From positions 5,847 to 69,846 of the forward strand of contig JBEPYU010000004.1 in assembly GCA_041641215.1 (NCBI GenBank): a stretch of 64,000 bases of DNA, given 5' to 3'. Both the position numbers and the translations under genes were made by a program. Shown here in pieces: positions 5,093 through 5,252 of the stretch. Source of the stretch: Thermaceae bacterium. GTDB taxonomy: Bacteria > Deinococcota > Deinococci > Deinococcales > Thermaceae. Under the pieces are notes generated by a model. The model ran no database searches, had not been told where the DNA came from, and was given only the letters and a program-made list of their open reading frames with translations. The number at the start of each line of letters is the position of its first letter. Position 1 is the stretch's first letter.

Positions 5093-5122
5093 TTGACGGG
5101 CCCATGGTCCTTGGCCTATCCT
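5093..5122 (+). promoter_or_regulatory. candidate sigma-A promoter of the aroF leader
   Basis: TTGACG (5093-5098), 18 nt spacer, TATCCT (5117-5122). Confidence 0.45.
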
Positions 5123-5132
5123 TAGGGCCAGT

Positions 5133-5192
5133 ATGCGGGGCTTTGGGTGCGTCCCCCTTGGGTTTTATTTCGGGCCCAGTGGGCGCCCCTAG
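5133..5192 (+). CDS. candidate leader peptide MRGFGCVPLGFYFGPSGRP (Phe-Tyr-Phe at codons 11-13)
   Basis: 19-codon ATG ORF inside the aroF leader. Its stop codon lies 2 nt past the first GGGCGCCC segment. Confidence 0.45.
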   Translation: MRGFGCVPLGFYFGPSGRP

Positions 5193-5211
5193 GCCCGCAT
5201 GGGAAGCCTTT

Positions 5212-5241
5212 GGGCGCCCTCGAGGGCGCCCAAATCTTTTT
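5212..5241 (+). terminator. intrinsic terminator / attenuator hairpin upstream of aroF
   Basis: Perfect 20-nt palindrome GGGCGCCCTCGAGGGCGCCC followed by AAATCTTTTT. A third GGGCGCCC lies at 5181-5188. Confidence 0.6.
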
Positions 5242-5252
5242 GGGAGGGGGTT

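Follow-up and report, generated by a model that had tools for sequence, protein, structure and literature searches.

A conserved leader upstream of aroF-tyrA in Thermaceae with the features of a ribosome-mediated transcription attenuator

Introduction

Does the DNA that separates the promoter from the first gene of an aromatic amino-acid operon in Thermaceae act as an attenuator and, if so, through what arrangement of codons and RNA segments would the supply of Phe and Tyr be sensed? The question is raised by a stretch of 64 kb (64,000 nucleotides of contig JBEPYU010000004.1 from Thermaceae bacterium; hereafter the window), in which aroF, the gene for 3-deoxy-D-arabino-heptulosonate 7-phosphate (DAHP) synthase, and tyrA, the gene for prephenate dehydrogenase, are preceded by a short open reading frame (ORF) and a terminator-like hairpin. 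An earlier note on this DNA had read the arrangement as a leader-peptide attenuator with Phe-Tyr-Phe (F-Y-F) codons. Based on the analysis presented here, the region 5133-5241 is very probably a classical four-segment, ribosome-mediated transcription attenuator controlling aroF-tyrA. It is apparently an undescribed instance of a well-known mechanism, conserved over three genera of the Thermaceae.

Sequence elements and alternative pairings of the aroF leader

The elements that characterize an attenuator can be read directly from the DNA upstream of aroF. A short ORF (5133-5192; MRGFGCVPLGFYFGPSGRP) lies near the promoter and 5' of the first structural gene, and is enriched in codons for the amino acids of the pathway. 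It includes the three consecutive codons TTT TAT TTC at 5163-5171 and one more Phe codon at 5142-5144, while aromatic residues account for 7.3% of codons in the window genes. TTT and TAT are minor codons in these genes (29% of Phe codons and 14% of Tyr codons, respectively), yet they dominate the cluster. The promoter, TTGACG-18-TATCCT (5093-5122), was the sole sigma-70-like site identified by a consensus scan of 4400-5600, where 0.1 such sites were expected.

Between the leader ORF and the structural gene there is an intrinsic terminator. It consists of an 11-bp stem, TTTGGGCGCCC/GGGCGCCCAAA (5209-5234), with the loop TCGA, followed by TCTTTTT, and it contains the perfect 20-nt palindrome GGGCGCCCTCGAGGGCGCCC (5212-5231). 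The octamer GGGCGCCC is present at 5181-5188, 5212-5219 and 5224-5231, i.e., three copies are strongly clustered within 51 nt, and six occur in the 64-kb window, where 11.8 were expected from shuffles. When strict criteria were applied (a perfect stem of at least 7 bp with at least 5 GC pairs, and a T-rich tail after it), just four sites resembling intrinsic terminators were found over the two strands of the 64 kb, of which the one in the aroF leader is the strongest by a wide margin. It is also the sole strong terminator in the window that is preceded by an aromatic-cluster ORF; a scan of the window for other candidates combining a terminator with a biased leader found none.

In the minimum free energy (MFE) structures, the whole ORF of the free leader RNA folds as one hairpin which extends from the AUG to the stop region and presents the F-Y-F codons at its tip. 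Segment 1 (5145-5154) is paired within this hairpin with segment 2 (5181-5189), such that segment 2 is sequestered when no ribosome is stalled, and the start codon itself takes part in a basal helix. The earlier note had overlooked both the pairing of segment 1 with the first octamer and the basal helix at the AUG, which in the folding model supply the '1:2' element of the attenuator. None of 200 shuffled sequences gave a fold as stable as that of the leader (z = -3.4; 0/200). Segment 2 has an alternative partner in segment 3, the 5' arm of the terminator. The calculated energies at 37 °C and 70 °C are, respectively, -41.7 and -18.5 kcal/mol for the 1:2 hairpin (whole ORF), -28.4 and -14.7 kcal/mol for the 2:3 hairpin (5176-5221), and -22.0 and -12.5 kcal/mol for the 3:4 terminator. 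By these model values the terminator is no more stable than the antiterminator, which is transcribed first.

Most of this layout had been described in the earlier note, and direct reading, the consensus scan, the energy calculations and Pfam/NCBIfam matches agree with it. This applies to the promoter at 5093-5122, the 19-codon ORF at 5133-5192 with F-Y-F at 5163-5171, the octamer copies A (5181-5188), B (5212-5219) and C (5224-5231), and the regulated genes, which had been given as a DAHP synthase with an N-terminal domain and a prephenate dehydrogenase. The proposal that A:B and B:C pairings are mutually exclusive is likewise upheld, 5181-5189 being able to pair with 5212-5219, and the palindrome at 5212-5231 is present, although its stem in fact extends to 11 bp.

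Conservation among Thermus, Meiothermus and Calidithermus

A search with AroF gave 40 loci from genome collections, and a protein search together with contig look-ups added closer relatives. Twenty-eight aroF leaders were compared, 16 from Thermus (the window included) and 12 from Meiothermus/Calidithermus. All 28 share a common layout of promoter, ATG, in-frame aromatic cluster and 2:3 alternative pairing. Cultured species with this cassette include T. scotoductus, T. arciformis and Meiothermus rufus. The check on conservation put forward in the earlier note thus turned out in favour of its reading, in that aromatic codons, ORF, hairpin and alternative segments are kept together in the 28 leaders.

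The leader peptides are MRTLGRYFGFYYPAGGALRSA in a typical Thermus, MSRTGRLYGWFYTRRGALRF in the relative L045, MQTSRGFASQTARYFGYFYWPGIPVRLA in Meiothermus and MQTHGVAKASARFFGYFYWPTVPVRSA in Calidithermus. Relatives of the window have 4-7 aromatic codons inside an 8-codon stretch; examples of the cluster are YFGFYY, FFGYFYW and YGWFY, along with GFYF in the window, and Trp codons are often among the aromatic codons of the Meiothermus leaders. Nucleotide changes within the cluster are mostly synonymous (TTT/TTC, TAT/TAC) or replace one aromatic residue by another, and the differences in ORF length between relatives are multiples of three. These substitutions, the length changes in steps of three and the dominance of minor codons are evidence, at the level of sequence comparison, that the ORF is being read, and we infer that it is translated.

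In each of the 28 leaders the promoter comprises TTGACR, a 17-18-nt spacer and TAnnCT, followed after 6-11 nt by the ATG. Given a transcription start 7-8 nt past the -10 hexamer, the 5' untranslated region (UTR) is predicted to be about 0-4 nt in all 28. No convincing Shine-Dalgarno (SD) sequence was found before the leader ATG in any of them. With so short a predicted UTR, translation of the leader ORF probably takes place on an mRNA that is leaderless or nearly so.

The pairing elements are equally widespread. A terminator hairpin with a T-run was found in 26 of the 26 relatives scanned. Of 25 leaders that were folded, 24 form the hairpin from AUG to stop region, in which some changes are compensatory, and in 28 of 28 the ORF contains a segment able to pair with the terminator's 5' arm. 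Segments 2, 3 and 4 are GGGGGCGCCCU, AGGGCGCCCCC and GGGGGCGCCC in Thermus, and UCCCCGUGAGG, CYUCCGGGGA and CCCCGGARG in Meiothermus; they are entirely different between the genera, with their complementarity kept. In a MAFFT alignment of the 28 leaders the terminators of both genera were out of register, and therefore a segment-swap energy test was used instead of pair counting. The mean energy of the 2:3 duplex was -26 kcal/mol when segment 2 was combined with a segment 3 from its own leader or the same genus group, versus -15 kcal/mol with swaps between groups. In the Meiothermus leaders, 90% of cells in the 2:3 pairing are paired, versus 56-73% in slid controls. Moreover, one terminator pair in Meiothermus is either U-A (7 sequences) or C-G (4), and the alternative partner in segment 2 is G throughout, paired as G-U or G-C. 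This switch opposite a constant G matches the prediction of a double constraint.

The window belongs to a lineage with its own variant of the leader. In the protein search, the clusters nearest to its AroF were Thermus sequences with 84-89% identity, and identity to any sequence on record was at most 89%. A comparison of window 5133-5200 with positions 1376-1441 of the relative L041 indicates that the leader frame 3' of the aromatic codons is shifted with respect to the nearest relatives (MRTFGRYRGFYPPAGGALGLA) and to all other Thermus leaders. The stop codon of the window leader follows directly after segment 2, compared with the conserved GCAUAG of the relatives, in which CAU-AG closes the basal helix. 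The window leader also lacks the GCGG/CCGC extension by which the antiterminator is lengthened in other Thermus leaders. It nevertheless keeps the basal helix and each of the four segments, together with the aromatic codons. Since the frame has shifted while codons and segments were retained, the comparison of these sequences argues that the codons and the RNA structure matter, and the peptide does not.

Proposed mechanism and its alternatives

Transcription would start at the leader AUG (5133) or a few nt before it. When Phe-tRNA and Tyr-tRNA are plentiful, the ribosome would reach the TAG at 5190-5192 and cover segment 2; if it is then released, or was never loaded, segment 2 would be held by segment 1 in the ORF hairpin. 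With segment 2 masked or held in either way, segment 3 would pair with segment 4 and the polymerase would terminate in the U-tract, at ~5241. Without translation, the ORF hairpin would also sequester the AUG, and the terminator would form. If tRNA charged with Phe or Tyr runs short, the ribosome would stall on TTT-TAT-TTC, where it would occupy ~5150-5181, separate segments 1 and 2, and leave segment 2 exposed. Segment 2 would capture segment 3 once that is transcribed, no terminator would form, and transcription would read through into aroF-tyrA. Where transcription starts, that it terminates at 5241 and how it responds to the supply of Phe and Tyr are in each case predicted from sequence.

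The geometry of the leader accommodates these steps. With a footprint that reaches ~12 nt downstream of the first A-site nucleotide (E. coli values, assumed to be transferable), a ribosome stalled at 5163, 5166 or 5169 would protect the RNA to ~5175, 5178 or 5181, respectively, while one at the TAG (5190) would protect ~5175-5202 and mask segment 2, not segment 3. The stalling geometry of the earlier note (3' edge at ~5175-5181; octamer A covered by the ribosome at the TAG) accords with these standard footprints.

A further refinement, to which we give slightly less than an even chance, is that the mRNA is leaderless, and that its 5'-terminal AUG also forms the first base pairs of the ORF hairpin, which would close only upon transcription of the stop region. 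In that case, loading of a 70S ribosome must take place while the polymerase makes ~60-100 nt, or else the start codon is locked and termination becomes the default. The leader would then be a timer for transcription-translation coupling at 65-75 °C, conserved in Thermus, Meiothermus and Calidithermus.

Several points weigh against the attenuator interpretation. Covariation within each genus is weak: most pairs are conserved, few are compensatory, and shuffle controls were not decisive. Because within-genus covariation is sparse, the structural argument rests mainly on the comparison between genera. The equilibrium fold with the 5' part masked and segment 4 present still favours the terminator. 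A purely thermodynamic switch was rejected on this ground, the antiterminator not being the MFE structure once segment 4 is present, and antitermination must therefore be kinetic and co-transcriptional, as in other attenuators. The window leader has only three consecutive aromatic codons (4 aromatic codons of 19), which is below most relatives (up to 7). The tract between the -10 hexamer and the ATG is G-rich (TAGGG in the window; GGAGG or GGGG in relatives), and by its sequence could be a short-spaced SD if the true start were further upstream; we take it to resemble the GGGA discriminator favoured by the Thermus sigma-A. In Corynebacterium glutamicum, the analogous leader responded to Phe and not to Tyr, and therefore the effector here cannot be assumed. 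Finally, the regulation proposed for the locus, both the transcript ends and the amino-acid response, is deduced from sequence.

The same hairpins could in principle be real and be set by something other than a translating ribosome, i.e., by a trans-acting factor such as an RNA-binding protein, by uncharged tRNA as in a T-box, or by a small molecule as in a riboswitch, with the ORF being incidental. High-GC sequence is often open in one frame by chance, and a terminator/antiterminator architecture is common to T-boxes, riboswitches and protein-mediated attenuators. However, a scan of 4300-5700 with the Rfam covariance models, all leader and riboswitch models included, gave only chance microRNA-type matches even at E values up to 10, with no T-box, riboswitch or leader family among them, and at gathering thresholds the whole 64-kb window had no match. 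Besides the pairing segments, only the in-frame aromatic cluster, with its synonymous or aromatic-to-aromatic changes, is conserved across the genera; no conserved unpaired site for a ligand or protein was seen apart from these codons. The changes in ORF length by multiples of three and the ATG fixed at 6-11 nt from the -10 hexamer are also difficult to reconcile with an incidental ORF, and we consider this explanation highly improbable. Still less probable is a role for the leader peptide itself in sensing or control, either as a nascent motif (G-F/Y-F/Y-Y-W/Y-P) that arrests the ribosome in the manner of TnaC or by acting in trans. The motif around the cluster, including the Pro which follows, is fairly well conserved within each genus, but the conserved residues past the cluster coincide with the RNA pairing segments, so that the RNA can explain them. 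The peptides of the window (GFYFGPSGRP) and L045 (YGWFYTRRGALRF) diverge strongly outside the aromatic residues, and that of the window is read in a different frame past the cluster. Moreover, if an abundant amino acid caused the arrest, the operon would be switched on just when its product is in ample supply, which would be the wrong way round for biosynthetic genes.

It could also be supposed that the hairpin simply acts, without regulation, as a terminator of or insulator against read-through from coaX, the co-directional gene upstream, and that the other features are a coincidence. The hairpin is located 543 nt past the coaX stop codon, however, beyond both another hairpin (4812-4824) and a palindromic element (4922-4966), and a conserved promoter lies between coaX and the hairpin. 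Furthermore, the gene found upstream varies from species to species (glyoxalase, Uma2, coaX and others), whereas promoter, ORF and terminator always accompany aroF as one cassette. This view is scarcely credible, and ribosome-mediated attenuation is the interpretation that we retain.

Comparison with known systems

The closest analogue that has been described, as far as the likeness goes, is the aroR-aroF system of C. glutamicum, in which a gene for DAHP synthase is immediately preceded by a short leader peptide with Phe-Tyr-Phe (Mentz et al. 2013, PMC4046766). Ribosome-mediated attenuation has been ascribed to this leader, with read-through increasing when Phe is limiting (PMC4046766; Neshat et al. 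2014, J Biotechnol 190:55, as cited in PMC11802643), and attenuator leaders of C. glutamicum can be without a ribosome-binding site (Morbach 2000, as cited in PMC4046766). The likeness is known from the F-Y-F motif and the DAHP synthase target given in these papers alone. The Thermaceae leaders differ in belonging to Deinococcota and not Actinomycetota, in regulating another class of DAHP synthase with other operon partners (tyrA), and in the usual 4-7 aromatic codons of the relatives. An independent origin of both leaders is likely because such leaders are short and fast-evolving.

With pheL-pheA (Phe_leader in Rfam) and trpL-trpEDCBA of E. coli, the Thermaceae leader shares the four-segment logic (1:2, 2:3, 3:4), the codons for end products and a terminator before the first structural gene. 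Unlike them, it matches no leader model of Rfam by sequence or structure, and the genes it precedes encode the first common step and the Tyr branch, and not pheA or trp. Its codons are mixed Phe and Tyr and are positioned not in the 5' arm but in the apical loop. The ORF apparently begins within ~4 nt of the 5' end, without an SD, and the start codon is part of the base of the 1:2 hairpin.

Leaderless leader peptides have been reported in the same phylum. In the study on Deinococcus deserti, which did not include Thermaceae, 14 putative leader peptides are reported for genes of amino-acid biosynthesis and tRNA synthetases, in transcripts whose 5' end is the AUG or 1 nt upstream (de Groot et al. 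2014, PMC4007540). Full-text literature searches, with subscription-only papers outside their reach, did not turn up any aromatic attenuator described for Thermus or other Thermaceae, in line with the earlier note, which was aware of none in Thermus.

The leader provides a concrete model for how Thermaceae may control entry into aromatic amino-acid synthesis, where attenuation would act on top of feedback inhibition via the regulatory domains of AroF and TyrA. It would extend classical leader-peptide attenuation, with comparative support, to thermophiles that probably translate the leader without an SD. It may serve as the seed for a new RNA-family entry, useful for annotation, and as a compact, heat-stable, amino-acid-responsive part for Thermus engineering. 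Nothing is overturned, as the mechanism is a textbook one and an F-Y-F leader before aroF has already been described in Corynebacterium; a specialist would not be surprised.

The aroF-tyrA operon and other elements

The features of the locus are listed in Table 1. The TGA of aroF and the ATG of tyrA overlap as ATGA (6284-6287), an arrangement which by its sequence implies translational coupling of both regulated genes; the same 4-nt overlap is present in the relatives L041-L048. The T-run of the leader adjoins the G-rich SD region of aroF (5242-5250) and ends 11 nt 5' of the aroF ATG.

Table 1. Coordinates of the leader, neighbouring genes and other elements (window positions unless a locus is named)
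Feature	Position	Strand	Remarks
-35 hexamer, TTGACG	5093-5098	+	Consensus scan; TTGACR at the equivalent place in 28/28 leaders, spacers differing
-10 hexamer, TATCCT	5117-5122	+	TAnnCT in all relatives; 10 nt from leader ATG
Leader ORF, 19 codons + TAG, MRGFGCVPLGFYFGPSGRP	5133-5192	+	TAG at 5190-5192; ORFs of 19-33 codons in all 28 leaders
Basal helix, 5' arm, AUGCGGG	5133-5139	+	Includes start codon; pairs with 5194-5200 in MFE structures
Segment 1, GGGUGCGUCC	5145-5154	+	9 bp with segment 2 (5181-5189)
Regulatory codons TTT TAT TTC (Phe-Tyr-Phe)	5163-5171	+	Tip of ORF hairpin; aromatic cluster in frame in all relatives
Segment 2, octamer A, GGGCGCCCC	5181-5189	+	Partner is segment 1 or segment 3 (antiterminator)
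Basal helix, 3' arm, CCCGCAU	5194-5200	+	MFE structures
Segment 3, TTTGGGCGCCC, with octamer B	5209-5219	+	Terminator 5' arm, or partner of segment 2
Segment 4, GGGCGCCCAAA, with octamer C	5224-5234	+	Terminator 3' arm
U-tract of intrinsic terminator, TCTTTTT	5235-5241	+	Predicted 3' end of ~110-nt attenuated RNA
SD region of aroF, GGGAGGGGG	5242-5250	+	Putative; direct reading
aroF	5253-6287	+	Type I-beta DAHP synthase with N-terminal ferredoxin-like regulatory domain; PF00793, PF18152; NF006421, 474 bits
tyrA	6284-7363	+	Prephenate dehydrogenase with C-terminal ACT domain; Pfam and NCBIfam
coaX	3908-4666	+	Type III pantothenate kinase; nearest convincing gene upstream of leader
Short GC hairpin GCCCCCTAGGGGC, then TCTTGGTTTC	4812-4834		146 nt past coaX stop
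Palindromic element	4922-4966		Core hairpin 4933-4960
Palindromic element, further copies	near 26054-26116, 30730-30774, 35883-35929, 38023-38064, 40759-40794		
Palindromic element, further copies	near 51715-51751, 56963-57008, 62676-62720, 62916-62960		
Palindromic element in L041	3613-3650		Immediately 3' of tyrA
Second leader type, L050 (Marinithermus hydrothermalis)	1060-1200		
Second leader type, L049 (Trueperaceae)	915-1045		
Second leader type, L013, L014, L016, L018, L020, L022, L027, L032-L036	upstream of aroF		

The gene that precedes the leader had been taken as divergent in the earlier note. This did not hold, as the nearest convincing upstream gene, coaX, is on the + strand and co-directional with aroF. 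The minus-strand ORFs at 4629-4853(-) and 4768-5058(-) were rejected as genes: they have no Pfam/NCBIfam match and a non-coding-like G+C content at third codon positions (GC3), which in the minus-strand ORFs of 4629-5058 is 0.59-0.72 versus 0.87-0.90 in real genes. The gap downstream of coaX is 427 nt and holds the terminator-like hairpin (4812-4824), possibly the coaX terminator, and a copy of the repeated palindromic element. In the closest relatives a glyoxalase gene precedes the leader; no remnant of it was found in the upstream region of the window.

The palindromic element is ~45 nt long and has the form TACC..CCCCATGCAGGC-GNRA-GCCTGCATGGGG..GGTA with a 12-bp stem, which has compensatory variants such as CGGGC/GCCCG. 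The 64 kb contain ~10 copies, against a chance expectation of 0. Several lie just past stop codons, and some carry an extra conserved arm of ~75 nt. The element has no match in Rfam; from its sequence it looks like a repetitive extragenic palindromic (REP)-like or miniature inverted-repeat transposable element (MITE)-like element, or a terminator module.

In other Deinococcota, aroF-tyrA has a leader of a second, different kind. Its promoter is of the same type and its ATG leaderless, and its conserved peptide reads K/R-G-G-x(3-4)-(M/V)-[E/D]-D-G-Y-(P)-G-Y, with an SD-like GGAGGTG before an internal ATG. Its Tyr codons are located at the tip of a long hairpin and it is without an intrinsic terminator; the mechanism may be translational or Rho-dependent. 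It may be a more novel object than the attenuator of the Thermaceae. In Marinithermus, the ORF of this second leader runs into the SD and start of aroF.

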